Of a stretch of DNA of 64,000 nt, positions 1 through 22,011 are shown piece by piece. Position 1 is the first letter of the stretch; the number at the start of each line of letters is the position of its first letter. Below the pieces are notes generated by a model. It did not search any database. It saw only the letters and a list, made by a program, of their open reading frames with translations, and was not told where the DNA came from. The position numbers and the translations under genes are program-made. The stretch is taken from sequence record MT446405.1. One strand, given 5' to 3'. Origin of the DNA: Escherichia virus TH32.

Positions 1-236
1 AGGCATATCTCATGAATGGTCTGGGTGGCACTTCTACCCTGACTGGCCCTTGCCCAAAGTTCAAAACGGCTATGTGACCAAATTCATTAAGTCGCGCGAC
101 TTCTGACACCAACATTCCTTCCCCACCAGTTTCTGAAGGGTATCTGGTAGAATCAAACCATCCTGCTTCAACAGTAAGACCCTTCATCGATTGAAGCGCC
201 TTTATCTGTTTTTCTATCATTTTTGATTTTGTCATA

Positions 237-818
237 TCACACCGGAATATCGCCTAAATCGTTATTAACAGCTCTTGCAACAGCAGGCGTGTCAATTGAA
301 ATTGCGTTTCTGTGAAGGATTACCAAATCAAAAGAAGGAAACGATTCAAACTGAGACATGTCGTCATAGAACTTTTCATTGTTGTTCATGTCGACTCTAT
401 ATACTGAAGCTTGATGCCTTTTAAACCAATCCCTCAAATTAGCCTTGTGGGTTATGAATCTTGCTAAATAAGTCAAAACGTCATTAGCCGTAGGCTTTTC
501 TGGATTGCCAGGAACTTCTGGAAATAAGCCGCTAATTTGAAAACGTGTTGCGTATATCTGATCTTCAATATCTTTAAATTTGCCATTAACGAATTGAGAT
601 TCATCATTGACAAATTCATTCTTTCTCATTGACCAACCGAATGGGACTGAGAATAAAAGGTTAAACCAAATCTGATCACCAGTCGGAATGCCCTGTTGAG
701 TCGGTTGGTATTTTTTCTGGACCGGAACAGCAGAAAGGTCTGCACGACTATACGCCGCCAGACCTTCTTCAATTCGCGTTGCCAGCATGTCAATCAGGTC
801 GACATCTGTCATATACAC
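237..818 (-). CDS. hypothetical virion protein (connector/neck region)
   Basis: Uncontested 193 aa ORF at distal end of minus-strand head module; no recognisable motif; position-based. Confidence 0.3.
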   Translation of the reverse strand: MYMTDVDLIDMLATRIEEGLAAYSRADLSAVPVQKKYQPTQQGIPTGDQIWFNLLFSVPFGWSMRKNEFVNDESQFVNGKFKDIEDQIYATRFQISGLFPEVPGNPEKPTANDVLTYLARFITHKANLRDWFKRHQASVYRVDMNNNEKFYDDMSQFESFPSFDLVILHRNAISIDTPAVARAVNNDLGDIPV

Positions 819-819
819 C

Positions 820-1206
820 TCAAGTAGACACTGGAAAGCTTTGTTTTACTTCCACGGCAAGGCAAGACGTCCAACCATCTTGGTCAAACCATGTCGTTTC
901 ATCTTCCATCTTGTACGTTTTGCCACCAAACACAAAATAGTCGCCGGAAGCGTCGCGGTCAAGGTCAACAATGTCTTTGTCCACCCAGATTTTGACATAG
1001 TTCTTTTGAAGCTCTAAACCAAGCTCAACGTATTGGTTTCGAAGTACAGCCTGCACCGAAGCAAGTAAGGTGATTGGTTCTTCATATGTAGTGACATAGT
1101 TGCGCATCTTATCAAGGGTGCGCCCCTTGTACATGTAATATTGAATCGGTTGGCGACCGATAACCTTTGTCGCAACTCGATATAAGTTTACGCCAGGAAT
1201 CCTCAC
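820..1206 (-). CDS. hypothetical head-tail connector protein
   Basis: 128 aa ORF, start overlaps stop of upstream gene (coupled); position in head module. Confidence 0.3.
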   Translation of the reverse strand: MRIPGVNLYRVATKVIGRQPIQYYMYKGRTLDKMRNYVTTYEEPITLLASVQAVLRNQYVELGLELQKNYVKIWVDKDIVDLDRDASGDYFVFGGKTYKMEDETTWFDQDGWTSCLAVEVKQSFPVST

Positions 1207-1667
1207 CAGAATACCCCACCAATTTTACGGAATCCTTCACGCTCTGGAAGGCCGCCGAATGACAAGCCGCCAACGGCCAGTGCTTGAAGAAGCGCCCACA
1301 GCGCCATGCCATATGGAGTGCTTGATAGCCAGTATTCCCAGCCATCACTCGCAGGCGGCGCGACTTTGTTCACTGTGATGTCACCAATTGTTGCTCCAGT
1401 CACGAAGCCGCCTTGTTCAACTCCGTCACCAGAAGACACAGACACTTGTTGGTCTGCGGCTATGCATAAAAGATGAGCCGTCATATATTCCAATGCCAGC
1501 TCCAATTTACTGCCATTTAAAACACGACAAGGACTGTCTTGTGATTCAATAAATTCACATGCCATGTCATAGAATACTTGAAGTGTTGTGTCAGGGAATT
1601 TAACCTGATCAGCAAACTGTGGAAATTTAATTCTGAACTTTTCGTAATCTAATGACATGGCATTCAC
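1203..1667 (-). CDS. hypothetical head-tail connector protein
   Basis: 154 aa ORF tightly packed after capsid-side genes; no motif. Confidence 0.3.
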   Translation of the reverse strand: MNAMSLDYEKFRIKFPQFADQVKFPDTTLQVFYDMACEFIESQDSPCRVLNGSKLELALEYMTAHLLCIAADQQVSVSSGDGVEQGGFVTGATIGDITVNKVAPPASDGWEYWLSSTPYGMALWALLQALAVGGLSFGGLPEREGFRKIGGVFW

Positions 1668-1672
1668 CTTAT

Positions 1673-2137
1673 TTAAACGCGGAACAAATCATCTTCTTGG
1701 TCGCCGCTCAATTTTACCTTGATGCGCTTGTCAGCAGTTTCGCGCGTCATAGGCGCAAACGGGTCGTCTGACATGCTGCGAACTTCTTTAGCGACGGCTT
1801 TGTGGTTGCCAACAATGTCGTGATTTACGACTTTCACCAAACCTTTTTCAAGATGCTGCTTAAACACGTGATGATCTTTCAGATGCTCAAAATCTGCATC
1901 GCTTACAACGGTGACGATTCCTTCAGGAGTCCACAAAGGTGCACCGTCAGCGCCTTTTGCCATTTCACCAAAGCCGGAAGTTGCTGAAGTAAGACCAGCG
2001 CCGCCCTTGATTAGAATCTGTTTGCGAATATTTGGAAGAGCGCCTGAACCAGCTTTTGCATTCGGGTTTTCTTTCACTTCCGTATAGAAAGTGTAGTTAA
2101 CTGACATAGACATAGTTGAAACGATGTATTTTGACAT
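1673..2137 (-). CDS. hypothetical virion protein
   Basis: 154 aa ORF immediately downstream of putative capsid gene; antisense ORF 1802..1987 judged spurious. Confidence 0.3.
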   Translation of the reverse strand: MSKYIVSTMSMSVNYTFYTEVKENPNAKAGSGALPNIRKQILIKGGAGLTSATSGFGEMAKGADGAPLWTPEGIVTVVSDADFEHLKDHHVFKQHLEKGLVKVVNHDIVGNHKAVAKEVRSMSDDPFAPMTRETADKRIKVKLSGDQEDDLFRV

Positions 2138-2252
2138 TTTGTAGTCCTATTTATATAAGCCTCAGATAAGCCCCTACAGCCCTTGAGGTCTATTGATATG
2201 GGGCGAAGCCTTTCGACCACGCCCCATGTGTTTTACTGTGTAATCACAGCAA

Positions 2253-3392
2253 TTAAATACCAGTCATACGGACGACTGCGAACGGACGCTTGAGCAGAAC
2301 GCCTGCTGTTGCGTTTGCGTAGTCTTCAACGTAGCTCTTAGCACGCTTTTCAACGCCCAGAGTCATGAACTTGGTTTGAACCAGCTGACTGAATACGGAA
2401 CCATCATCGCTTGAACCATCGATTGAGGAATCGATGTGATCGGCGTACAGGTATGCCACGTTCAAGAAAGTCGGGTCACTGCCAAGTGCGCCGTTGAGTT
2501 CCGGTGCAGATTTGATCTTCATCTTCGGATAAGTCTGGGTGATCCAGTCACGTACAGAAATACCGAAGTCAGTGGTGTTGGACAGCCAATCGATAGAGTT
2601 AGTCGGCAGCGCCAGAGTCATGTCAACTTTCTCTGGATCAATCTGGTCCTGAGAGTTCACACGAATTTGACGAACCATCAAACGGATGTCTGCAGTTACC
2701 TGTTGGAAAGTCGCAGTAGCCCAGCCGGAAGTGGTGTTGGAAGTCATCGCCGCTGGCAGGTTTGGATCATTCAGGAAGCCGAATGTGCGGTTGTTCCCGT
2801 TGTACCAGCCATAGAAGCCGATTGCGTTACGCATGATTTCCAGAGATACAGCAGCCTGCTGGCGCTTGGTTTCTGCGGAGTTCAGACGCATCGCAGACGC
2901 GCGGCCTTCTTCCAGCATACCAACTGCCATGCCCATTTCGCCACGAACGATAGAACGACGTTCAAAGTTTACGTTCCAGCTTGCCAGAGGAATAGAGGTG
3001 AAATCACCATATTCGACTGCGGTGCCAGCTGGTTCAACGATGCCCTGAACGATTTCTGCATCTTCCCACTGACCAACGGTATCAATACCAACCAGCTCGT
3101 CGATTTTACGAGCAGCGGTCATGATTTTGACGAAGCCAGGCAACCACTGCTGCAGGAACTGCAACGGGGTCGGGATTGACGGAGTGGTCTGCGGCGCAGT
3201 AAACGCGGCATCACCTACGCGGAAAGCGCCTGCACGGTTTAAGTGCTCAATCTGATCACGCACAATCGCGGAATCAAACACAATACCGATACGAGCAAGC
3301 TGGGAAACAGCCGCGTCGGTGACGGATTGCATATCAAAAGGTCGCACCTTGCTCGCTGGGAGGCGAGAGTGTGTTTGGCTAATGCGAGTCAT
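2253..3392 (-). CDS. major capsid protein (putative)
   Basis: 379 aa, size and position (terL-portal-morphogenesis-scaffold-X-capsid order); no motif verified. Confidence 0.5.
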
Positions 3393-3406
3393 TATTCACC
3401 TGCCTA

Positions 3407-4024
3407 TTAACGAGTCAATTGTACAATGGTATAAGTGGAAGACTGGACGCTTGGGCCGGAAAGGGCAATAGCAGTCGGGTCAATCACGATACCGCCTGGA
3501 ATGGCAACCATGCCAGTTGGCAGTGAGCCAGTATAGGCGATAATTGCACCGATAGGCAAGTTGTTCGGGTTGTTACCGCTGGAAATGCCTTTAGGTACAT
3601 AAGCGAGCAGGTCGCCGTAGTTCAGCGTCTGCGGACTGGTGCTTGGGTTGAATACTTCAACTACGAGGCCCGTGCACATATCGTAGAACTCGCCTTCGCT
3701 ATATTGAGGCAGAACCATGCTGGCACCCAAAGGACCAGTAGAGTTGCCATACAGAGCGTAACGCTTGCTGTTGCCAAGGATGCCATAGTAATTGGTGCCG
3801 CCCAGTTCAACTTCAAAGTCCTGCGCGCCCAAGGTTTTGGTCTGGCCAGTACCCATTAATGACACATCAGCCTTAAAACCAAACACACGGCTGATGGCGT
3901 TTACGTTTGCACCGTCGTTGGCGCTAACGATTCGGCCTGGCTTCCCACGCTGTGGGCCGTCGCGAACGATGTCGCCAGGAAAGCCAGTTGTATATTGACG
4001 GCCTACACTAGTTTGGAAAGTCAT
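3407..4024 (-). CDS. Gly/Ser-rich capsid-associated protein (possible decoration protein)
   Basis: Start moved to Met at 4024 preceded by AAGGGGA RBS; lies between scaffold and capsid genes. Confidence 0.3.
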   Translation of the reverse strand: MTFQTSVGRQYTTGFPGDIVRDGPQRGKPGRIVSANDGANVNAISRVFGFKADVSLMGTGQTKTLGAQDFEVELGGTNYYGILGNSKRYALYGNSTGPLGASMVLPQYSEGEFYDMCTGLVVEVFNPSTSPQTLNYGDLLAYVPKGISSGNNPNNLPIGAIIAYTGSLPTGMVAIPGGIVIDPTAIALSGPSVQSSTYTIVQLTR

Positions 4025-4026
4025 GT

Positions 4027-5448
4027 TTATTCCCCTTTCAACCAAGCTTCAAATGCTTCGTCAGTTGCTGCAGAATCCGCAGCGGCCTTTTGTTTTGCGA
4101 CTACACGCTGTTTTTGACCGTGCTCAACGCCGCGCAGATAATTATCCACCACGTCAAACTCAGCCCCATCAACGCACTTCAAGCCTAACTTTTTAGCGCC
4201 ATATTTCGCTACGGACTTGGAGTCCATAGTTGCATGATCAAAGGCACCAACAACTTTAGACAGGCGCTGGTAGAGGCTATTCTTACGAGCAGAATCAGCG
4301 TAGAAAGCAGCAACTGCTGAATCAGATGCCATTGAGTGTTCCCCTTTTGCTGGACCTGGCGACGCTTTCGCCGCTTTTGTCGGTTTGTCATCTTTTTCGA
4401 CCGAAGCCCCCTTTACGTTGCTGTTTTGCAGGCCGCTAACCACATCTTCAGCTTTGTCGCAAGGTGATACATCTTCAGCCTTGACTTCAACTTCTTCTTC
4501 GTCTTTGACTTCGGCTTCAACTTCTTCTTCATCACCTACCGCGCCACCTTTCAGTTTTGCAATAAGTGCTTCGATTTGGCTGATCAATTGCGGAAGTTCG
4601 CCGCCAGCGTGAGATTCAGCTTCAACTTCAAACTTCTCTTCACCTTCTGGGGTTTCTTCTGCTTCTGCCTTGACTTCTGGATCAACCATTACTTCTTCAC
4701 GATTTTCGGTTGAGTCCTTCTCTTCTGCTTTCACTTCAACTTCATCCTGATGAGCAGCTTCAGTACTCTCTTCGTTCAGAAATTGTTCGAGCGCAGGAAT
4801 CAGTGATTTCAGCTGTTCAACAGCATTATCACGCGCTTTACCTTTTAACGGTTTTGGCATGTCTAAATCCTCGTTGGATGGTGTTACAGTCGTCAAACAA
4901 AGATGGTCAAAGCAACGACCATCCAGCACCCGTGCACCTGGTACTCGACCAACGTCCACGAGAGCAATGTGGTTGCCGCGAAGAGTTGTCTGCACCACTT
5001 CATACGGCTGCCCGTCAAACTCTCCAGACTGTATGATGAATTCACAGTCATAGCCCAAAGACAAGTCAACCTTTCCAGAATCAATGGCCTTCTTAAGACG
5101 ACGGCTGAACACTTTAAGGTCGCCGCGCATCCATGGCTTGTCATAATAAACATTGCCAGTCAGAACGCCATCAACTCCATACTCTTCGGGTGCTGTGTTA
5201 TCCTCATCACCTTCAAATCCAGAAAGCATTTCGTGATTGTCGATGAAAGGGATATTTTTGAATGAATCTATCGCTTCGGGGTCTTTCACCGCTGACTCAG
5301 GGCGATAGACTTTTACGATGCGATTCGGATCACCATCAAGACCAACTTGACCAGCAGAATAATCAAAAATGCCAAATGACGAAATTGGACAACCCATAAT
5401 CGTCAAGAATCCATTTTTGTCAATTTCGCGTGCCGTTTGCATTCGCAT
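4027..5448 (-). CDS. scaffolding protein (possibly fused to prohead protease-like N-domain)
   Basis: 473 aa with long acidic Glu/Val/Ala/Lys-rich central stretch (EEEVEAEVKDEEEVEVKAED...), GAGGGTGG RBS; position between portal and capsid genes. Confidence 0.45.
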   Translation of the reverse strand: MRMQTAREIDKNGFLTIMGCPISSFGIFDYSAGQVGLDGDPNRIVKVYRPESAVKDPEAIDSFKNIPFIDNHEMLSGFEGDEDNTAPEEYGVDGVLTGNVYYDKPWMRGDLKVFSRRLKKAIDSGKVDLSLGYDCEFIIQSGEFDGQPYEVVQTTLRGNHIALVDVGRVPGARVLDGRCFDHLCLTTVTPSNEDLDMPKPLKGKARDNAVEQLKSLIPALEQFLNEESTEAAHQDEVEVKAEEKDSTENREEVMVDPEVKAEAEETPEGEEKFEVEAESHAGGELPQLISQIEALIAKLKGGAVGDEEEVEAEVKDEEEVEVKAEDVSPCDKAEDVVSGLQNSNVKGASVEKDDKPTKAAKASPGPAKGEHSMASDSAVAAFYADSARKNSLYQRLSKVVGAFDHATMDSKSVAKYGAKKLGLKCVDGAEFDVVDNYLRGVEHGQKQRVVAKQKAAADSAATDEAFEAWLKGE

Positions 5449-5471
5449 CCACCCTCAAATAAGTATTGTGT

Positions 5472-5500
5472 ATTATATCTAATGAAAAAAACTTAGGCAA
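5472..5500 (-). promoter_or_regulatory. sigma70-like promoter for scaffold/capsid genes
   Basis: Minus strand TTGCCT-N17-TATAAT about 25 nt upstream of start at 5448. Confidence 0.4.
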
Positions 5501-5558
5501 ACAATAATTATGGTTTGAATATGTATAACAACCGATATAGCCGCGCCTTTATTAGTGT

Positions 5559-5830
5559 GATACGGATGATACGGATAAAATGAGGCGTATTTTTATCCGT
5601 ATCGGTGTATAAGCCGCGCTATCACTGGTGTGCTACGGATGATACGGATGATACGGATACTTTTCATATATAAGAGTTTATAAAAAAATAAAATTAAATT
5701 AGATATATAATTTTAAATTAATTTATTTGAATTCCTATATAGTACTGCGGCAACGCGTATCATCCGTATCATCCGTAAGATTCTTTTGAAAACAACAACT
5801 TACTTGATACGGATGATACGTCATTATACG
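5559..5830. repeat. iteron cluster flanking AT-rich core (copy 1)
   Basis: GATACGGATGATACGG-type repeats in both orientations at 5559-5577, 5634-5660, 5756-5779, 5806-5820 around a >85% AT core at 5660-5745. Confidence 0.7.
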
Positions 5831-6011
5831 TATAAAACTCGCAGCAATCCTTTGCCGATGAATTCAGTGAATATTAAATAGCACTCCTGCCACTAAAACG
5901 CCAATCAACATCGAGTCATAAACAGCCCATTTCCAAGAAAGCAAAGAGTTGCAATTAATATTTCGCACTTTAACATAACGTGACTGAATAATCTTTTGCA
6001 TAACTTCCTCT

Positions 6012-6932
6012 TTAGTTCAGCTTAATTGCGGTGATCTGTCCGTAAACGGTAGATGTCAACGCGTCGGTGCACTGATAGTTTAAATACACATTACCAGGCG
6101 CGGCAAGAGTAATTACTTTTGTTGGGATGTTGCCGCCGAAGCGACCTGCAGCCCGAATGCCAGCTGACATGGCAAATGCATCATCCGTAATATCTGAATT
6201 GCTTGTTGACAATTTGACTGTAATTCCGGTATTCGCTTGAACGCCTGCTGTCGCGACAGTCAACTGACTTGCTGTTACAAGCCATTTCCCTGCAGGAAGG
6301 TTTAAGGTTGCCAGATTGACCAAAGTTGTTGGAGGATTGCTGACGCTATTAGTGGCATTCTGGACGGTACTTGCTGCTGCATTAAGCACACCAGACCCAT
6401 CAATTGATAGAGTTGTACCGACCTTTACGCCGCCTAAAGTAGATGCTGAGGCAATCGGCAATGAGTATTGGGTGACGCTGATTGTACCATCACCTGCTAC
6501 GCTTATTCCGGTGCCTATTTTGACGCCACCAAGAACGGAAGCTGTTGCCGCTGGTAACGTGTATTGGTTGCCGCTGGTTTTCACAACTTTGACTGCGACA
6601 GCGTTTTTCGACCCTCCAGACTCCATACCTATGATCACTGCTTCACCAAAAGCAATGGTGATTGTTGATGCAGTCAAGCCAGTTTGAACGTCTGTGATGT
6701 TCATCTTAGGCACAGACAATGTCAGGTTAGGCTTGCTGGTCGAATCGCCATCATTGCCAATCATAAAGAATTGACCTACTGAGTTATACCCTGATGCAAG
6801 CGGCGGGCTCAGTGGAACAATCAAGTTTTTATCAGAAGTGAATTCTGAGACAATTGCCAAGCCATTAGCATACACCGCAGGCAAGACTGGAGTTTGTCCA
6901 GATAGAGGGAATGTGTTGATTGGTATCGTCAT
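6012..6932 (-). CDS. fibre-like repeat protein (head fibre/decoration or receptor-binding candidate)
   Basis: Internal duplicated motif ASVLGGVKIGTGISVAGDGTISV / ASTLGGVKVGTTLSIDGSGVLNA typical of phage fibre repeats; start set to Met at 6932 with GAGGT RBS. Confidence 0.4.
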   Translation of the reverse strand: MTIPINTFPLSGQTPVLPAVYANGLAIVSEFTSDKNLIVPLSPPLASGYNSVGQFFMIGNDGDSTSKPNLTLSVPKMNITDVQTGLTASTITIAFGEAVIIGMESGGSKNAVAVKVVKTSGNQYTLPAATASVLGGVKIGTGISVAGDGTISVTQYSLPIASASTLGGVKVGTTLSIDGSGVLNAAASTVQNATNSVSNPPTTLVNLATLNLPAGKWLVTASQLTVATAGVQANTGITVKLSTSNSDITDDAFAMSAGIRAAGRFGGNIPTKVITLAAPGNVYLNYQCTDALTSTVYGQITAIKLN

Positions 6933-6939
6933 AATGACC

Positions 6940-7791
6940 TCAGATAATTGGTATTTTTCTGCACTTGCAGTGTATTGCCCATCCAGGAGGACCGATGTCA
7001 CCCTTTTTGAACTTAAGTTCTCCACCTACTTCCCATAAGCGTTTGTCATCAAGCTTGAATCTCATGCCGTCGACGTGCTCATGTGATATTCGCGGCTCTT
7101 TGCCTGCTCCTGAATGCGCCCACTCAAATTCCTCAACGCCATTCTGTCGCATCCTTTCATCACTTAATACGCAATAAAGTTTGCTCGTTTGGTCTTTGGC
7201 GATAAGGTCTACGCGTTTTGCAGAGAATTGTTTTACATTCCTTAGTGCCGCCTGAATGCCGGATGTGCCTTGCTGCGCTGGGTCTGGCGAAGTCAGCGAA
7301 AGCATCACCGCTTCGTACACCCTGTTGTGAATATCCTCGCCAACCTTAGTCACTAGAGTCGTGTTGAACGTCTCGCTTGTTTTAAGAGTGTTCTCAACGA
7401 ATTTATTATATGTGGCTTTTGGCGCTTCTATTCCTGCAGATTTAAGACTTGCGAATGTAGCAGAAGTCGCACCCTTTTCAACTGACTTGATGAAATCTGC
7501 GGCAATCTTTGACCCAACACGGGCGAATGCTTTTGCCCATTTCAGTTGAAGGCGCTTCATCAAGGTCTGAAAAGTTGAATCAGCAGAGTCTTGCGCAAAG
7601 AACTTTTTCACCTGCTTCTTTTCAAGCCACTCAGCAATGCCTGCCTGATAGTCATCAATCATCGCATAGCAAAGACCTTTCATCTCACGACGATAGGCCA
7701 TCGCAATAGCGTTGGATGGGATTATCGGACTGCCGCGCCCGATTCTATCGGGTGAGCGGCGTTCGCGTTTTTTCGAAGCTTTAAAAGCCAT
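6940..7791 (-). CDS. head morphogenesis / minor head protein (putative)
   Basis: Basic N-terminus, position directly downstream of portal gene; start chosen at Met abutting portal stop. Confidence 0.35.
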   Translation of the reverse strand: MAFKASKKRERRSPDRIGRGSPIIPSNAIAMAYRREMKGLCYAMIDDYQAGIAEWLEKKQVKKFFAQDSADSTFQTLMKRLQLKWAKAFARVGSKIAADFIKSVEKGATSATFASLKSAGIEAPKATYNKFVENTLKTSETFNTTLVTKVGEDIHNRVYEAVMLSLTSPDPAQQGTSGIQAALRNVKQFSAKRVDLIAKDQTSKLYCVLSDERMRQNGVEEFEWAHSGAGKEPRISHEHVDGMRFKLDDKRLWEVGGELKFKKGDIGPPGWAIHCKCRKIPII

Positions 7792-12484: not shown

Positions 12485-12523
12485 TATGATTCCAGCTTAG
12501 TAGTGGATAAAGGGTGATCTTTC

Positions 12524-12550
12524 GGCCAGATTCTTTCTGGCCATTTTTTT
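12524..12550 (+). terminator. hairpin + T7 tract in 5' leader (attenuator-like)
   Basis: GGCCAG-attcttt-CTGGCC followed by TTTTTTT, located between promoter and RBS of 12565 gene. Confidence 0.4.
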
Positions 12551-12564
12551 ATCAGGAGTAAACC

Positions 12565-12795
12565 ATGGCCCTAGTCAACATTCAACTCACTCCCTCTTAT
12601 ACTTCCGTAATCTCTGTTGCTGAAAACGTATCAGGAGCACTTATTCAAGTTCGCGGCGGTGCCGCTGAGATTTGTTTTGGGGAAAAGGCCGATGACAATT
12701 TGATCGGAATCGCAGTTGTTGGTACAGTCACAATCCCGCCAGGCGTTGAGATTTTCGCAAAGGGAAGTGGCACATTAATTGTGTCTTCACACTGA
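12565..12795 (+). CDS. hypothetical protein
   Basis: 76 aa, CAGGAG RBS. Confidence 0.45.
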   Translation: MALVNIQLTPSYTSVISVAENVSGALIQVRGGAAEICFGEKADDNLIGIAVVGTVTIPPGVEIFAKGSGTLIVSSH

Positions 12796-12883
12796 TACGA
12801 TGCCATGGACGGCATAATTCACAAAAAGTTTGCCTTTCTGAAACTCTGCGTTATAATCATATTAACTCAAAACCGGAGGTAAT

Positions 12884-13099
12884 ATGAAACTCATCGACCG
12901 CGCCATCAAAGCCATAGACAACCATTCCACGGCTATTGCATTTGTAATGGGATTCTGTTTTACTGCTGCGTTTGGCGACGTTCACACATTCAAGTCTGTC
13001 ATCTTGTGCTGGTCTATCTGGTCCCTCATTTCTCTGGTTTTGATTCTTCCGATGACGTGGCTTGTCCTTACTTGTCTGGAATCTCAAGGTGAAGACTGA
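12884..13099 (+). CDS. small membrane protein (two TMDs; holin-like candidate)
   Basis: 71 aa with two hydrophobic segments and charged C-terminus; GGAGG RBS. Confidence 0.45.
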   Translation: MKLIDRAIKAIDNHSTAIAFVMGFCFTAAFGDVHTFKSVILCWSIWSLISLVLILPMTWLVLTCLESQGED

Positions 13100-13320
13100 T
13101 GAGACTATCAATAAAAGAGCGGGCAAAACGTCCCAAAAGGAGTGAGCCAAAAGCGAAATATACATGCGTAGGCGGTCCATTCGACGGTCAAGCGATGTGG
13201 CTTTCAAAATCTAATCCATCGACGGTTGAGTTTAGCCTTCATGGAATGCGCGGCAGATACCTGCTAAACAGAGAAACAATCGGCAGCACATTTGTGGAGT
13301 GGAAAGAAAATGGCAAGTGA
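13099..13320 (+). CDS. hypothetical protein
   Basis: 73 aa, ATGA start/stop overlap with upstream gene. Confidence 0.4.
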   Translation: MRLSIKERAKRPKRSEPKAKYTCVGGPFDGQAMWLSKSNPSTVEFSLHGMRGRYLLNRETIGSTFVEWKENGK

Positions 13321-13543
13321 ATTAACTTTAAAAGTACCAAAAGAAGTGCTAGATAAGGCATATGCAGATTCTGTAAAAGAATTGGCCGTGGTGCTTGGGA
13401 TTGAAAATGAATTTAACGTTCAATTGCAATTCCTTAAGGACACGCTTCAAATTAAAGAGAATAGAGAGGCTGGAAGCGGTGCGCCTTTAGCTCTGGCAAT
13501 CCTCTATACAGGTCTGATTTTGCAATCTGGAGACGAACTGTGA
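13310..13543 (+). CDS. hypothetical protein
   Basis: ATG at 13310 in frame of listed ORF 13292..13543. Confidence 0.35.
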   Translation: MASELTLKVPKEVLDKAYADSVKELAVVLGIENEFNVQLQFLKDTLQIKENREAGSGAPLALAILYTGLILQSGDEL

Positions 13544-18054: not shown

Positions 18055-18640
18055 CCGCGCAGGAGTGTACTGCAAATTTCCTGTGGGTACAAAATAGTAC
18101 GGTACTGTCCAGGACTTTTTCTTTGAAAAGTTAGTGGACCAAATGTGTAGTATTTTGATTAGTGTACCGCAAATTCCATCAAGTACCAAAACGCACCAAA
18201 AGACCCATGCCATAAAAACCACACGAACGCAATAATCAATCGACGTTACAGTTTCCAGCGTTACAATTCGAAAGCGAATGATTCGACGCATAATAATATG
18301 AAGCATAATGATTCGAAAGCAAATGATTGCGTGTAGGATAATATCGGTGGGGATTATTCTAGATGCATGTAATTTCGCATGCGTACTATTTTCGGACGAA
18401 GGGTCGGCATATTCCTCGTTTTAGTTCGGAACGAAGGGAAAGTTTTGCGCCTTTATAAAACAACGACTTACGCGACCCGCCCTAACGGTCCGATATAGGT
18501 GTCTATATAAAACAAGGACTTACGCGATGTTCTCCATTTAACGTAATACCTGTTATGCGAACTAAGACGCATCTCGAAGAAGATTATGCGACGACGAAGG
18601 GAAGGATAAAGGAGTTTTCGCGTAGGAGCGCATCGAGATA
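18055..18640. repeat. repeat-rich non-coding region
   Basis: Approx. 600 bp without credible ORF; repeat families GTAC(T/C)GCAAATT(T)CC, AATGATTCGAAAGC, CGAAGGGA and TATAAAACAA(C/G)GACTTACGCGA. Confidence 0.6.
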
Positions 18641-18645
18641 GGGAC

Positions 18646-18671
18646 GAAGAAAAGCCGCGACTAAGCGCGGC
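18646..18671 (-). terminator. rho-independent terminator (minus strand)
   Basis: Minus-strand GCCGCG-cttagt-CGCGGC followed by UUUUCUUC, 20 nt after stop of 18692..18982. Confidence 0.55.
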
Positions 18672-18691
18672 CTATTAGTAACGGAAGGGTA

Positions 18692-18982
18692 TTATAAGGA
18701 GACGATTTTAAAATAAGTTACTTCGCCGCCGAGTTGCGGTACAGCGATATATTCGCCGCCGATTTCGGTAATCGTATAAACGAAGCCGTTAATCGTTACG
18801 CGATAGGATACGATGTCCTCGTCGCGATACTTGTAAAGGTCGAGGAAGTTGATCGGCTCATAAATAGACTCGATAATCGCGTCTACGTTAGAGAGATAAA
18901 CGCTCTCTAAGGTTTCGCCAAATACGTTAGAGTTTTCGGAAGTTTCGACGCGAGCGGAACGGATAGCGGCTAAAGTAATCAT
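18692..18982 (-). CDS. small acidic protein, paralog family A/C
   Basis: 96 aa, AGGAGA RBS; paralogous to 19617..19901. Confidence 0.6.
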   Translation of the reverse strand: MITLAAIRSARVETSENSNVFGETLESVYLSNVDAIIESIYEPINFLDLYKYRDEDIVSYRVTINGFVYTITEIGGEYIAVPQLGGEVTYFKIVSL

Positions 18983-19049
18983 AATAATCTCCTAGTTGGT
19001 CGGGCGGGTAGCGACCTATTCGCTACCTCATCCCCTCTCGATATAAAAC

Positions 19050-19078
19050 ATTATAGTCTTAGTGTACGAAGAAGTAAA
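19050..19078 (-). promoter_or_regulatory. sigma70-like promoter
   Basis: Minus strand TTTACT-N17-TATAAT. Confidence 0.5.
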
Positions 19079-19090
19079 GCACTTTTTTCG

Positions 19091-19393
19091 TTATTTTGCG
19101 ATAAAATATTTATAAGCTTTATCGCCTTCTACGTCGATATACTCGACGATAATTAATGCTTCGCCGCGAGGCGTAACCGTCTCGATAAGGGTAACGGCTT
19201 CGTCGTCGGTCTTCGCGAAGCGGATGGCGCTACGTTCGGCGTATTTAATTTCGTCGAAGGAAAGGCCGACGAAGGCGACGGCGCGCGCTTTAATAATGCT
19301 CGTTTCGAGTTCCGCGTTAACGGCAGCGATAAGAGAGCGAACGGTTAAGCGGTCTTCGTCGTAAGTAAGGATGGAAGAGATTAAAGTAGTCAT
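19091..19393 (-). CDS. small protein, distant member of the same family
   Basis: Start at Met 19393 with GGGAGC RBS. Confidence 0.5.
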   Translation of the reverse strand: MTTLISSILTYDEDRLTVRSLIAAVNAELETSIIKARAVAFVGLSFDEIKYAERSAIRFAKTDDEAVTLIETVTPRGEALIIVEYIDVEGDKAYKYFIAK

Positions 19394-19449
19394 AATAAAG
19401 CTCCCGATGCTAGTAGAAGGAAGGGCCATCGCCCGTCTCGATATAAACA

Positions 19450-19477
19450 AGTATACGCGAGTGTACGAAGAAGTAAA
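19450..19477 (-). promoter_or_regulatory. sigma70-like promoter
   Basis: Minus strand TTTACT-N16-TATACT. Confidence 0.5.
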
Positions 19478-19520
19478 GAAAAAGATAAAATAATTTATCG
19501 CATTTTTATCGAAAAAGTGC

Positions 19521-19549
19521 TTTACTTTTTTCTACACTATATTATAATG
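19521..19549 (+). promoter_or_regulatory. sigma70-like promoter (divergent partner)
   Basis: TTTACT-N17-TATAAT. Confidence 0.5.
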
Positions 19550-19616
19550 TACTCATATCGGGACGGGATGAGTTAACGAATAGGTCGTTAACGCCTCTCC
19601 CAACTAGGAGTTTAAA

Positions 19617-19901
19617 ATGGCTATTCTTAACGTTTCTTCTATCCGTAACGCCATCGTCGAGAACTACGGCGTAAAACAAAAATTATCCGAAGTCTACGCC
19701 GCGAACGTAGACCAAACTATCGAAGAGGGTGGGGTAACGGTCGCCGAGGCTTTTAAACTTTACGCGGCGTTACCGGAATCGGACCGCGAAGCCTTCGAAG
19801 TAAACGTTAACGGATACTTCTTCGAAGCGGTCGAAATCGGTAATATTTTACTCGTTATGGGCGAAGAAGAATTTGAGACCTTCTCCCTCGTCGAAGCGTA
19901 A
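19617..19901 (+). CDS. small acidic protein, paralog family A/C
   Basis: 94 aa, TAGGAG RBS; shares motifs with 18692..18982. Confidence 0.6.
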   Translation: MAILNVSSIRNAIVENYGVKQKLSEVYAANVDQTIEEGGVTVAEAFKLYAALPESDREAFEVNVNGYFFEAVEIGNILLVMGEEEFETFSLVEA

Positions 19902-19981
19902 GAGAGGATTTTTAGAGCGTCGTGCGCGGCGCTTTAATAAAATTCTTTCGCGCCTAGCGCCCTAACAAATAGGAGTTTATT

Positions 19982-20608
19982 ATGGTTAGCTTAAATCGCT
20001 TTTCTACTAGCGGCGACGTTATCGCAACTAAGACCGCCGACCTCGTTGCATTTTACAATGCAAATTCCGGTTCGAAGCCGATTAAAAAGTTCGCTGACCG
20101 CCGGACCGCCGAGACTCGCGTAATCGCGCTAATCGAGTCCTTAAACGCGCTCGATGAGCCGTCCAACGAATCGCCCATCCCAGACGCGAAGCCGCGCGAG
20201 GAAGTGTCCAGCGATGTAAAAACGCACAAGGCGCGTGCGGTCGTTAAAAAGGCCGAGCCGACCCAGGAAGAACTCGACGCGATGAGCGATGAAGAGTATG
20301 AAGCCTTCGTTAAGAGCGGCTTAAACGATAGTGCAAATTGCGTAGTGCAAAATGGAACTCCTTCCCATCGCCGTTCGAATAGCGAAGGTATTGCAAAAAG
20401 TTGGGATAATAAGGAAGTGGCGCAAAAGCGTCTTACCCGTAACGGCGTTATGGTCGAGGGTGTAGGCGAGTTCAAATCGGTCCGCGTAGCATTCGCCGCG
20501 CTGGGCTTACCGGATAGCAAACACATTCGCTTCCGTATGAAGCTTAAGGAAGCTGGGCGCTTGAACTTCGAGTTCGGCAACAAGTCCTACACATTCCAGA
20601 TTATCTAA
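19982..20608 (+). CDS. hypothetical protein
   Basis: 208 aa, TAGGAG RBS; CpG-rich coding; contains two copies of the ATAGTGCAAAT motif in frame. Confidence 0.5.
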   Translation: MVSLNRFSTSGDVIATKTADLVAFYNANSGSKPIKKFADRRTAETRVIALIESLNALDEPSNESPIPDAKPREEVSSDVKTHKARAVVKKAEPTQEELDAMSDEEYEAFVKSGLNDSANCVVQNGTPSHRRSNSEGIAKSWDNKEVAQKRLTRNGVMVEGVGEFKSVRVAFAALGLPDSKHIRFRMKLKEAGRLNFEFGNKSYTFQII

Positions 20609-20615
20609 TCGAATG

Positions 20616-20640
20616 GCGGCCCTTCGGGGTCGCTTTTCAT
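20616..20640 (+). terminator. rho-independent terminator
   Basis: GCGGCCC-ttcg-GGGTCGC followed by TTTTCAT. Confidence 0.55.
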
Positions 20641-20983
20641 AGTGCAAATTGGTGGCTTATGAATACGCTTATTCTCATCGCTACGTTGTCCATCGGAAGT
20701 GGTCGCACCTTATCCCTTTACGACCATAGTGCAAATTGCGCTTACCCTACGCGCGTTGCGGCAATAGTTAATAGTGCAAATCGAATGCTATTCGAAACTT
20801 GTTGGCGGGTCGATAACGAGAAAGGGCGCATCGTCTTAGGTTATAGTGCGAATCTGCTGGTGGAGTCGTTCGATTGGACGGTTGAAGGTCGTAAATTGTT
20901 ACGTAAGGTGACTAAAAGATGACTTATAATAATACACTTTCTAACGCGTTTATGGTTGTAACCTTCCCCGTCGTATTACCGAT

Positions 20984-21023
20984 GGCCCTAGAAGTGGAGA
21001 AAATGTGTTCTAGGGCCGTTTTA
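20984..21023 (+). terminator. long hairpin, terminator-like
   Basis: 10 bp inverted repeat GGCCCTAGAA / TTCTAGGGCC with 14 nt loop followed by GTTTTA. Confidence 0.35.
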
Positions 21024-21036
21024 TAGTGCAAATTGG

Positions 21037-21509
21037 CTAGTGGCGGGAGAATTGCTCGCCTTCTTTGGCCGCCTCTCCGAAATCCTTGTAGAAATCGTCC
21101 ATGGAACGGCCCATTTTACTATTGCCGTTTTCATCAATCATCGTGATGCCGTAGATGATATTCAGTTCACGAATAGCATTAAGTTTGGCTGACGCCGCGA
21201 CTTCTGGATCACGCACAAGCTTGACCAAATTGTGAATTGCACCTTTTACGCTCCACAAATCCTTGAGTGGCATCTCTTCCATACGCTTTTTGAAGCGCAT
21301 TTTGTAGTATGGGTTGCGTTGCGCGCAAAGGATTCGCTGGCCAGTGTAGCTATCCGTTGCAACTTCCATTCCAAATACTAGTGCAAAAGCTGCGCGCATG
21401 TCATGGCCCTGAATAACAAGGTCAATGAACTCATCGAATAAAGCCTGATTGTGCTCTGCAAATCGCGGGTCTTCAAAGTCTTCAGGCATCGCTACATAAT
21501 CTTGACTCA
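21037..21509 (-). CDS. hypothetical protein
   Basis: Start at Met (MSQDY...) whose ATG lies inside an ATTTGCACTATG motif copy. Confidence 0.45.
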
Positions 21510-21738
21510 TAGTGCAAAATCCCATAGTGCAAATTAATAGTGTGAATTATACAATGGATGGACATTATATTCAAGTGCAGATTGATGTTCATTATGGCTA
21601 TAAACGTACACAAATCACAGTGCTGAATGGATAACGGACCGTGGTGCGTGGTGTACTGTTTGATACGTATAAAAGAAATCCATCCCTTTTGCCGCTTGTT
21701 ATGCAAATCAATGACTTAGCCGCTGCTGGCTGGTCGAA

Positions 21739-22011
21739 GCGTATCATGACGTATCATCCGTATTGCCGCAAGTCTTTGTTTTTACTTATATCTTACGGAT
21801 AATACGTTAAATATATAAATTAACATAAGTATGAGGATGTAGAAAAAAATTAATTTAAATGATTTTAAAATGGAGTTAATTAATTTTTCAAATTATATAT
21901 ATAACGATGCCCAGTTTTATCCGTATCATCCGTAAGATTAATGTACAAGCCAGGCGCGGCAAGGGCTGTACACTGATACGGATAAAAAACCATGACGTAT
22001 CATGACGTAAG
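21739..22011. repeat. iteron cluster flanking AT-rich core (copy 2)
   Basis: Same (C)GTATCATCCGTA-type repeats and AT-rich core (21800-21905) as at 5559-5830. Confidence 0.7.

Follow-up and report, generated by a model that had tools for sequence, protein, structure and literature searches.

A nearly CA:TG-free early module in the terminal repeat of Wifcevirus phages: a possible restriction-exposed leader

We describe here a block of DNA lying at about 18240-21036 in a stretch of 64,000 nucleotides of Escherichia virus TH32 (MT446405.1), hereafter the window, to which all positions refer unless a record is named. The initial annotation, made from the letters alone, had pictured this block as a compositionally distinct island, rich in CpG and TpA, with promoters, terminators and genes of its own. 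The stretch 18000-21100 matches 28 phage records at 94-97% identity, all of them Wifcevirus myophages with E. coli or Shigella hosts, including WFC, WFH, ECML-117, Mansfield and the BASEL phages Bas98-101. It belongs to a direct terminal repeat (DTR), of which the window contains one collapsed copy at 18199-21871; these limits were transferred from the DTR that PhageTerm predicts for phage Mansfield (record 1-3673). In WFC and WFH, repeats of ~3.7 kb have been reported at the termini (Korf 2019), and the block used as a query finds two places per linear record wherever both repeat copies are included. Position 18199 is the inner boundary of the left DTR copy and, equally, the physical right terminus of the right copy. 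The part of the block that is depleted in the dinucleotides CA and TG begins at this inner boundary and fills the inner ~2 kb of the repeat; in the right-hand copy it lies at most about 200 bp from the physical terminus. The gene of the small terminase subunit, terS (21037-21525, minus strand), and a one-stranded array of ten ATAGTGCAAAT motifs are found at the opposite, left end. Comparison of related genomes indicates that such a block has been conserved, at a fixed place in the inner ~2 kb of the DTR, in three genera of enterobacterial phages, and that selection apparently keeps it nearly CA:TG-free in all three.

Within the ~3.7-kb DTR, the block is predicted to be an early module read by host RNA polymerase. 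Three putative sigma70 promoters of one design, as the initial annotation had proposed, match 9-10 of the 12 consensus positions and are laid out divergently. On the minus strand, P1 (19050-19078, TTTACT-N17-TATAAT) would drive orf96 (18692-18982) and P2 (19450-19477, TTTACT-N16-TATACT) would drive orf101 (19091-19393), while on the plus strand P3 (19521-19548, TTTACT-N16-TATAAT) would serve orf94 (19617-19901), ORF208 (19982-20608) and ORF87 (20659-20922). The ribosome-binding sites are strong and of the TAGGAG type, and many Shine-Dalgarno-like runs occur inside the module. Terminator-like hairpins flank it: an intrinsic-terminator-like hairpin follows orf96 (18652-18673, minus strand), and a long hairpin (20984-21017) with a terminator-like one (21042-21060) closes the rightward unit (20984-21060, plus strand). 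Between orf96 and the terminus lies a conserved non-coding stretch (18240-18690) with direct repeats of 43 nt (two copies, 18257-18344) and 25 nt (two copies, 18451-18527). The products of orf96, orf101 and orf94 are weakly similar, small acidic proteins, orf101 being a paralogue. The product of orf96 lacks internal H, C, W and M, and Asp and Glu make up 14-23% of residues in the small island proteins, Lys and Arg mostly 4-12%. None of the island proteins matched a Pfam family or a functional PHROG family, ORF208 belonging to phrog_4730, of unknown function. The picture of a self-contained module of small genes without recognisable domains, under its own promoters, is thus borne out.

The size of the compositional signal was measured as the ratio of observed to expected dinucleotides (o/e) in windows of 500 nt. 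In a core zone at 18400-20200, CA and TG both have an o/e of ~0.27, with CG at 2.1 and TA at 1.2. The mean of CA and TG is 0.27 there, against 1.19 (sd 0.11, minimum 0.87) elsewhere (z = -8.4), and the core contains 64 CA+TG, compared with 223±12 in mononucleotide shuffles. The abrupt change of texture reported initially is therefore real. Over 18240-20320, CA stands at 0.35 and TG at 0.37 (1.17 elsewhere in the window), CG at 2.12 (elsewhere 1.09) and TA at 1.20 (elsewhere 0.67). The remaining 12 dinucleotides are essentially unchanged, and the G+C content of the block, 0.46, equals the value found elsewhere in the genome. The block extends less sharply than first described: extreme depletion is limited to 18400-20200, the signal fades to intermediate values over 20200-21036, and terS beyond it is normal (CA and TG o/e 1.26 and 1.23). 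All eight trinucleotide contexts are depleted, CAG/CTG the most (CAG 0.17) and CAT the least (0.54), the latter because of true ATG codons. Surviving CA and TG in non-coding DNA are mostly found in elements shared by the promoters and leaders (GTGC before the -35, ACAC in the spacer, AATGT after the -10). The Dam site GATC occurs once in the island where 3.5 would be expected, and twice in the whole repeat (18200-21872), independently of CA/TG. A second CpG-rich patch at 5251-6000 (CpG o/e 1.7-1.9, G+C 0.385) has normal CA/TG, and so represents a different phenomenon.

The richness in CpG and TpA noted initially is confirmed, but it is not the primary signal. Indeed, when low CA/TG alone was imposed by proportional fitting, CG and TA were predicted at 1.80 and 1.09 (observed 2.13 and 1.24), whereas imposing high CG/TA alone predicted CA/TG at only 0.69 (observed 0.29) and, in addition, wrongly predicted falls in AG, CT, CC and GG. 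Since low CA/TG predicts the excess and the converse fitting fails, the CpG/TpA excess follows arithmetically, for the most part, from the exclusion of CA/TG. A preference for CpG/TpA as the primary signal was ruled out by this fitting, together with the lack of Arg enrichment in the island proteins. The unusual sequence constraint that had been suspected thus takes the form of an exclusion of CA and TG.

This depletion hits both strands, and non-coding as well as coding DNA. On the small genes' own sense strand, CA o/e is 0.16-0.22 and TG 0.13-0.24 (0.21 and 0.24 in orf96, 0.22 and 0.13 in orf101), with no codon-phase preference. The non-coding DNA at 18400-18691, which lies beyond a terminator, is as strongly depleted as coding DNA, with 12 CA+TG in 292 nt against ~36 expected at equal base frequencies. 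The codons for His, Gln, Cys, Trp and Met necessarily contain CA or TG. In the phages examined, these five amino acids together account for 3.4% of island proteins and 10.4% of proteins elsewhere. Taken together, these observations point to a constraint that acts on the double-stranded DNA itself.

The comparison with other phages speaks for selection rather than history. The island is present in 28 of 28 Wifcevirus records. Outside this genus, a distant blastn search with the core reached a single record, that of Pantoea phage PA1 (Kylevirus), over 76 nt of promoter sequence, and PA1 has a ~2-kb CA/TG-free block of its own. Similar blocks are found in Pantoea phage Kyle (record 1600-3400) and in Serratia phage MTx (Myosmarvirus, record 1400-3600), where TG o/e is as low as 0.00-0.09 and the end of the block coincides with the DTR boundary given by PhageTerm, 3566. 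The ~2-kb blocks of Wifcevirus, Kylevirus and Myosmarvirus thus sit at the same position of the DTR with essentially no alignable island DNA, and their gene content differs among the three genera and varies even within Wifcevirus. Two ORF208-family paralogues of MTx differ in the same way: MTx_006, inside the DTR (2714-3220), has CA 0.32 and TG 0.22, whereas MTx_016, outside it (6483-7517), has 0.90 and 1.05. No CA/TG depletion was seen beside the ORF208 homologues of Pbunavirus Ab27 and Xanthomonas phage XcP1, and the island was not found in Pbunavirus, Carpasinavirus or T5. What the constraint tracks is location within the repeat and not the presence of a given gene.

The promoter pattern was also used to scan IMG/VR, which returned 51 loci; about 40 of them were unrelated and served as controls, with a minimum 800-nt (CA+TG)/2 of at least 0.69. 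Apart from the known relatives, one unrelated 13.4-kb contig (IMGVR_UViG_3300025296_000303) stood out; it shows CA/TG o/e of 0.12-0.18 in its last ~800 nt (12500-13382). It carries two paralogous genes (74 and 79 aa, 66% identical), the terminal copy having CA 0.26 and TG 0.09 and the inner copy 1.00 and 0.70. Fifteen contigs related to it show only mild local dips. The trait may therefore, on this thin basis, not be confined to one phage group, with this contig as a possible second lineage.

Several features of the individual genes complete the description of the locus. The orf94 family, with its homologues in WFC, Kyle, PA1 and MTx, amounts to 12 clusters among 5.8 billion proteins, all from these phages. 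The AlphaFold2 (AF2) model of orf94 reaches a pLDDT of 91 and gave no significant match to any solved structure, Ocr, ArdA and other DNA mimics included. What occupies the position of orf94 varies: in WFC-type phages it is a 104-aa homologue, and phages of the ECML-117 type lack the gene. In ECML-117 and vB_Eco4M-7, where orf94 is missing, an extra 69-aa gene (phrog_10377, 'transcriptional regulator'; record positions 699-908) stands between window positions ~18700 and 18704. Since some Wifceviruses have this gene and not orf94, the early module can be regarded as a variable cassette site. ORF208, whose 5' third lies inside the depleted zone, had no sequence match in the PDB. Its homologues occur in 355 phage records across the Pbunavirus-like supergroup, and a separate homologue search gave only near-identical copies. 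More than 100 near-identical ORF208 clusters were found on ~68-kb contigs from E. coli and Salmonella isolate assemblies and from raw-read assemblies; Wifcevirus genomes thus appear to be carried along often when bacterial isolates are sequenced.

The 5' leaders of orf96 (18983-19050, minus strand) and orf94 (19549-19616, plus strand) have in common a conserved start as well as a hairpin whose loop is GAATAGGTC. Compensatory changes set the two stems apart (GGTAGCG/CGCTACC and GTTAACG/CGTTAAC), suggesting that an RNA stem-loop with a function lies upstream of the ribosome-binding site. An Rfam search of the DTR returned no match. Toward the left end of the repeat, in its outer half, ten ATAGTGCAAAT-type motifs are spread over 20329-21534, all on the plus strand. 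They cover the 3' end of ORF208, ORF87 and, antisense, terS. Read in frame inside ORF208 and ORF87, a small protein with a Kylevirus homologue, the repeated motif gives S-A-N triplets. A TAGTGCA cluster occupies the same place in Kylevirus, and a different threefold repeat in MTx. The array could be a terminase-recognition or injection-stop-like array.

Published restriction phenotypes provide the functional side of the argument. According to the BASEL paper, Wifcevirus resists every tested restriction-modification (RM) system except EcoP1_I, with no known genome protection, and its supplementary table gives 38 EcoRI sites and 92 EcoCFT_II sites per Wifcevirus genome; EcoCFT_I is described as nearly identical to EcoAI. 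Our own counts for Bas99 and Bas98 agree exactly with the published ones (AGACC 89 and 82, GAATTC 38 and 36, GATATC 8 and 6). A single 5-mer, CACAG, occurs 92 and 93 times, and since it alone matches the numbers published for EcoCFT_II in both phages, we infer that it is the recognition site of this type III system. We then counted the sites of six RM systems in the DTR-equivalent of the Bas99 and Bas98 genomes. There are none in either phage for EcoRI (GAATTC), EcoRV (GATATC) and the EcoAI-like EcoCFT_I, 1 and 0 for EcoKI, and 0 and 1 for EcoCFT_II, taken as CACAG, where ~5 would be expected; the phages are resistant to all five systems. EcoP1_I (AGACC), to which their sensitivity is very high, has 6 and 5 sites, in both orientations. 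The TH32 window shows the same pattern, AGACC occurring 5-7 times per DTR overall and in both orientations. Type III enzymes require two inversely oriented sites and type I enzymes two sites; EcoP1_I is thus the only one of these systems with a cleavable configuration in the DTR. The rule that an RM system restricts only if its sites lie in the leader region therefore agrees, in silico, with the published phenotypes of the six systems. CAGCAG, CAGAG and CCWGG occur 0-1 times in the DTR against 2-3 expected.

Such a rule is known from other phages. In T5 and BF23, restriction takes place only if there are sites in the first-step-transfer (FST) region, and the island resembles this region in its location inside a long direct terminal repeat at a genome end, in its divergent units of small, mostly function-unknown genes behind strong host sigma70 promoters, in the repeat-rich non-coding array alongside, which in T5 is the injection stop signal, and in the resistance to RM unless sites lie in this region. 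It differs from T5 in that the repeat is 3.7 kb instead of ~10 kb, and that no homologues of A1, A2 or dmp were recognised among the Wifcevirus island proteins with Pfam and PHROG. In T5, DNA transfer proceeds in two steps, with a halt at the injection stop signal until the pre-early proteins have been made; in Wifcevirus, the one-stranded array of ten motifs follows the island, and a counterpart of this halt would be drawn by analogy. In Autographiviridae, the motif content of the leading, first-injected region decides sensitivity to type I RM. As here, the early genes of T7-like phages are read by host RNA polymerase, and to their acidic anti-restriction protein Ocr might correspond, in kind, the small acidic proteins of the island. 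However, the T7 terminal repeat is short, the proteins are unrelated, and specific sites are avoided in T7-like phages where a whole dinucleotide is avoided here. The island proteins resemble DNA mimics of the Ocr/ArdA type in size and acidity, but not in sequence or fold. A further parallel, by description and not by comparison of sequences, is phage SPO1, whose terminal redundancy reportedly contains a host-takeover module, a cluster of small genes expressed early whose promoters and ribosome-binding sites are of unusual strength. SPO1 differs in its Gram-positive host, its hydroxymethyluracil DNA, its 13-kb redundancy and in having no known dinucleotide exclusion.

The exclusion itself distinguishes the island from related phenomena in viral genomes. 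Phage genomes avoid restriction words such as GATC, CCWGG and palindromes (Rusinov 2018). Recognition words such as CACAG and GATC may be under-represented here in a comparable way, in correlation with resistance. In contrast to that phenomenon, a 2-bp step is excluded regardless of context, over only ~2 kb of the genome, strongly enough to deplete five amino acids, and with no reduction of palindromic hexamers. The CpG/UpA bias of vertebrate RNA and small DNA viruses is also a selection at the level of dinucleotides that is independent of protein coding. Here, however, CpG and TpA are enriched and another pair is depleted, the genome is double-stranded DNA, the host is different, and the readers of that bias, ZAP and RNase L, are not found in bacteria. 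Unlike hypermodified-DNA phages, these phages show no base-modification genes, as judged from the ThyX-type thymidylate synthase and from the neighbouring genes. Our literature search yielded no account of a phage region from which one dinucleotide pair is excluded on both strands, in coding and non-coding DNA alike, to the point of depleting five amino acids, and this in three genera. The island is best filed as a leader akin to the first-entering, restriction-exposed regions of T5 and the relatives of T7, with an exclusion at the dinucleotide level for which we found no precedent.

We therefore favor, with about even confidence for and against, the explanation that the CA/TG-poor stretch of the DTR is an unprotected leader that evades host nucleases in a T5-like manner. 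By analogy with lambda and pac phages, packaging would begin beside the terminase recognition region, so that the far end would be packaged last and ejected first; the island, at the tip of the right physical end, would then be exposed in the cell before all other DNA of the phage. It would be transcribed at once from P1-P3 by host RNA polymerase, and the leader would have to survive unprotected until the small acidic proteins and ORF208 are made. These products might then protect or admit the remaining genome, as the products of the FST region would do in T5. Removal of CA and TG would strip the leader of nuclease words such as CACAG, CAGCAG, CAGAG, many type I half-sites and CCWGG, and restriction would succeed only where the sites of a system remain in the leader, EcoP1_I being the single case. 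This explanation works only if the specificities that matter on a leader of 2-4 kb are rich in CA/TG. Among enterobacterial specificities, the type III sites CAGCAG and CAGAG are of this kind, as are the inferred CACAG, many type I half-sites, CCWGG and CTGCAG, and the place of CAG/CTG as the most depleted context fits this condition. A role in anti-defence or host takeover, proposed by the initial annotation, is plausible on the basis of the position in the terminal repeat and of the published restriction phenotypes.

A number of observations nevertheless weigh against the leader explanation, the choice of CA/TG being its weak point. Phage vB_Eco4M-7 has been rebooted from naked, PCR-derived assembled DNA (PMC11074155), so that a laboratory host requires neither DNA modification nor entry in stages; the assumed order of the two ends, and any staging, would rest on analogy. 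T5-like phages resist EcoP1 even with sites in the FST region, whereas Wifcevirus is sensitive, so the rule is not universal. Moreover, T5 FST DNA has a normal content of CA and TG (o/e 0.97 and 0.91), and CA/TG depletion as a general mark of FST DNA was rejected for this reason. The comparison covers six RM systems, and a zero count for a rare site is uninformative taken singly (0.1-1 expected); AGACC sites persist in the DTR, and the other dinucleotides of restriction sites are not depleted. Compared with control windows, the island has fewer distinct 5-mers occurring in both orientations (by 11%), fewer distinct 6-mers (by 16%) and no fewer palindromic hexamers; a generic shrinkage of the restriction vocabulary was accordingly discarded, its effect being small, and nil for palindromes. 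Finally, in nine Wifcevirus islands directional pressure looks weak, with a slight deficit of changes that create CA/TG (p = 0.07-0.12): in the core, 36.5% of observed transitions create CA/TG compared with 41.4% possible (p = 0.12). In the flanks the direction is opposite (40-48% observed, 28-30% possible), and CA/TG-destroying changes are 1.6-fold over-represented in the core only. Continuing selection within the genus is thus weakly supported.

Other explanations have to be weighed against these data. The main rival is a nuclease or nickase with a true 2-bp preference for CA/TG that would act early in infection, whether phage-encoded, virion-borne for the destruction of host DNA, or part of host defence; the leader would then be written uncuttable, and the rest of the genome would be protected later or enter later. 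A dinucleotide reader suits the near-absolute, context-independent exclusion (down to the lowest TG values in MTx, and in eight of eight contexts), and generic site avoidance would bring little benefit. It would parallel the T5 puzzle of FST DNA that survives the degradation of host DNA, and a very short latent period has been reported for Wifcevirus. However, no candidate emerged: the proteins encoded by the island are small and acidic, contain almost no His or Cys, and match no family or fold. Moreover, CA/TG content is normal in the rest of the genome, and the full genome of vB_Eco4M-7, electroporated at once, is productive. No nuclease specific for CA/TG is known to us from enterobacteria or their phages, and overall we consider such an enzyme rather unlikely. 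That the bare CA:TG step is read by some DNA-targeting activity, either of these phages or of Enterobacterales, so that the first-exposed ~2 kb, with its proteins, would be written in an alphabet of 14 dinucleotides, seems to us doubtful. A DNA modification in CA/TG context, which would protect the genome while the early region avoids its target and stays readable by RNA polymerase or invisible to modification-dependent nucleases, would explain resistance at sites containing CA/TG (EcoKI, EcoAI, CACAG) alongside sensitivity at AGACC. It leaves resistance to EcoRI and EcoRV unexplained, the thymidylate synthase is of the ThyX type and not a hydroxymethylase, and the neighbouring genes have no modification-family matches. 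The phage also reboots from PCR-derived DNA, which is true of modified phages too. We give it a small chance; hypermodification of the hydroxymethyluracil type was set aside in view of ThyX and of the lack of pathway genes among those found.

A physical constraint is conceivable in that the last ~2 kb would be packaged in the most strained part of the spool or portal, where CG and TA steps in place of CA/TG would adjust the mechanics of the DNA to packaging or ejection. The fixed length (~2 kb) and the fixed position at the right terminus, across genera of the same virion architecture and with any gene content, would agree with this, as would the absence of the island in the Pbunavirus region examined. 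The restriction phenotypes would remain unexplained, though, a mechanical optimum needs no near-total exclusion in every context, and the left DTR copy has the same sequence at an internal position. To our knowledge, no established mechanical rule sets CA/TG apart from both CG and TA, and this explanation has little chance in our view. An effect on the expression of early transcripts could consist in the removal of NTG start codons in all frames, the avoidance of RNase targets (e.g. ACA), or codon and tRNA effects. TG is indeed the shared core of ATG, GTG and TTG, and the module combines promoters and ribosome-binding sites of great strength with numerous internal runs that resemble Shine-Dalgarno sequences. 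Nevertheless, every small gene loses both CA and TG on its sense strand and the non-coding DNA beyond the terminator is equally depleted, which argues against an RNase-target, tRNA or codon effect, as does the lack of codon phase. CTG is the weakest start codon and yet lies in the most depleted context, against start-codon avoidance, and as it is also the favorite codon of E. coli, the island is not codon-optimised. An expression-level cause is thus largely refuted by the strand-symmetric and non-coding depletion, and has very little chance of being right. Hardly any chance is left for recent horizontal acquisition from a donor with this signature, which the initial annotation had considered, or for a regional mutational bias without selection. 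The abrupt compositional boundary, and the replacement of CA/TG almost one-for-one by their transition neighbours CG and TA, would be in their favor. On the other side, the block shows neither the atypical base composition nor the patchy distribution in close relatives of a horizontal island: G+C is that of the genome, the island occurs in all relatives, and non-alignable analogues exist in two further genera, a conservation across genera that contradicts recent acquisition. In addition, amino-acid composition has been reshaped and paralogues differ by position, and we know of no mutational process that removes CA by changing either base.

To conclude, our results describe an exclusion of one dinucleotide pair that is strong enough to deplete five amino acids, in three phage genera. 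The leader explanation would offer a testable account of the BASEL observation that five RM systems are resisted despite dozens of sites while EcoP1_I is effective, and the analysis supplies CACAG as the recognition site inferred for EcoCFT_II. The small early acidic protein family provides candidates for a broad anti-restriction function. For phage engineering, edits to the leader are predicted to change host range, either by removal of AGACC or through inserts free of CA/TG. If a reader of the bare CA:TG step does exist, the island would be a natural 'stealth' sequence that could be used to find this reader and to design DNA that survives it. The rule that the leader region decides the outcome of restriction may extend from T5 and the relatives of T7 to a group of myoviruses related to the therapeutic Pbunaviruses.

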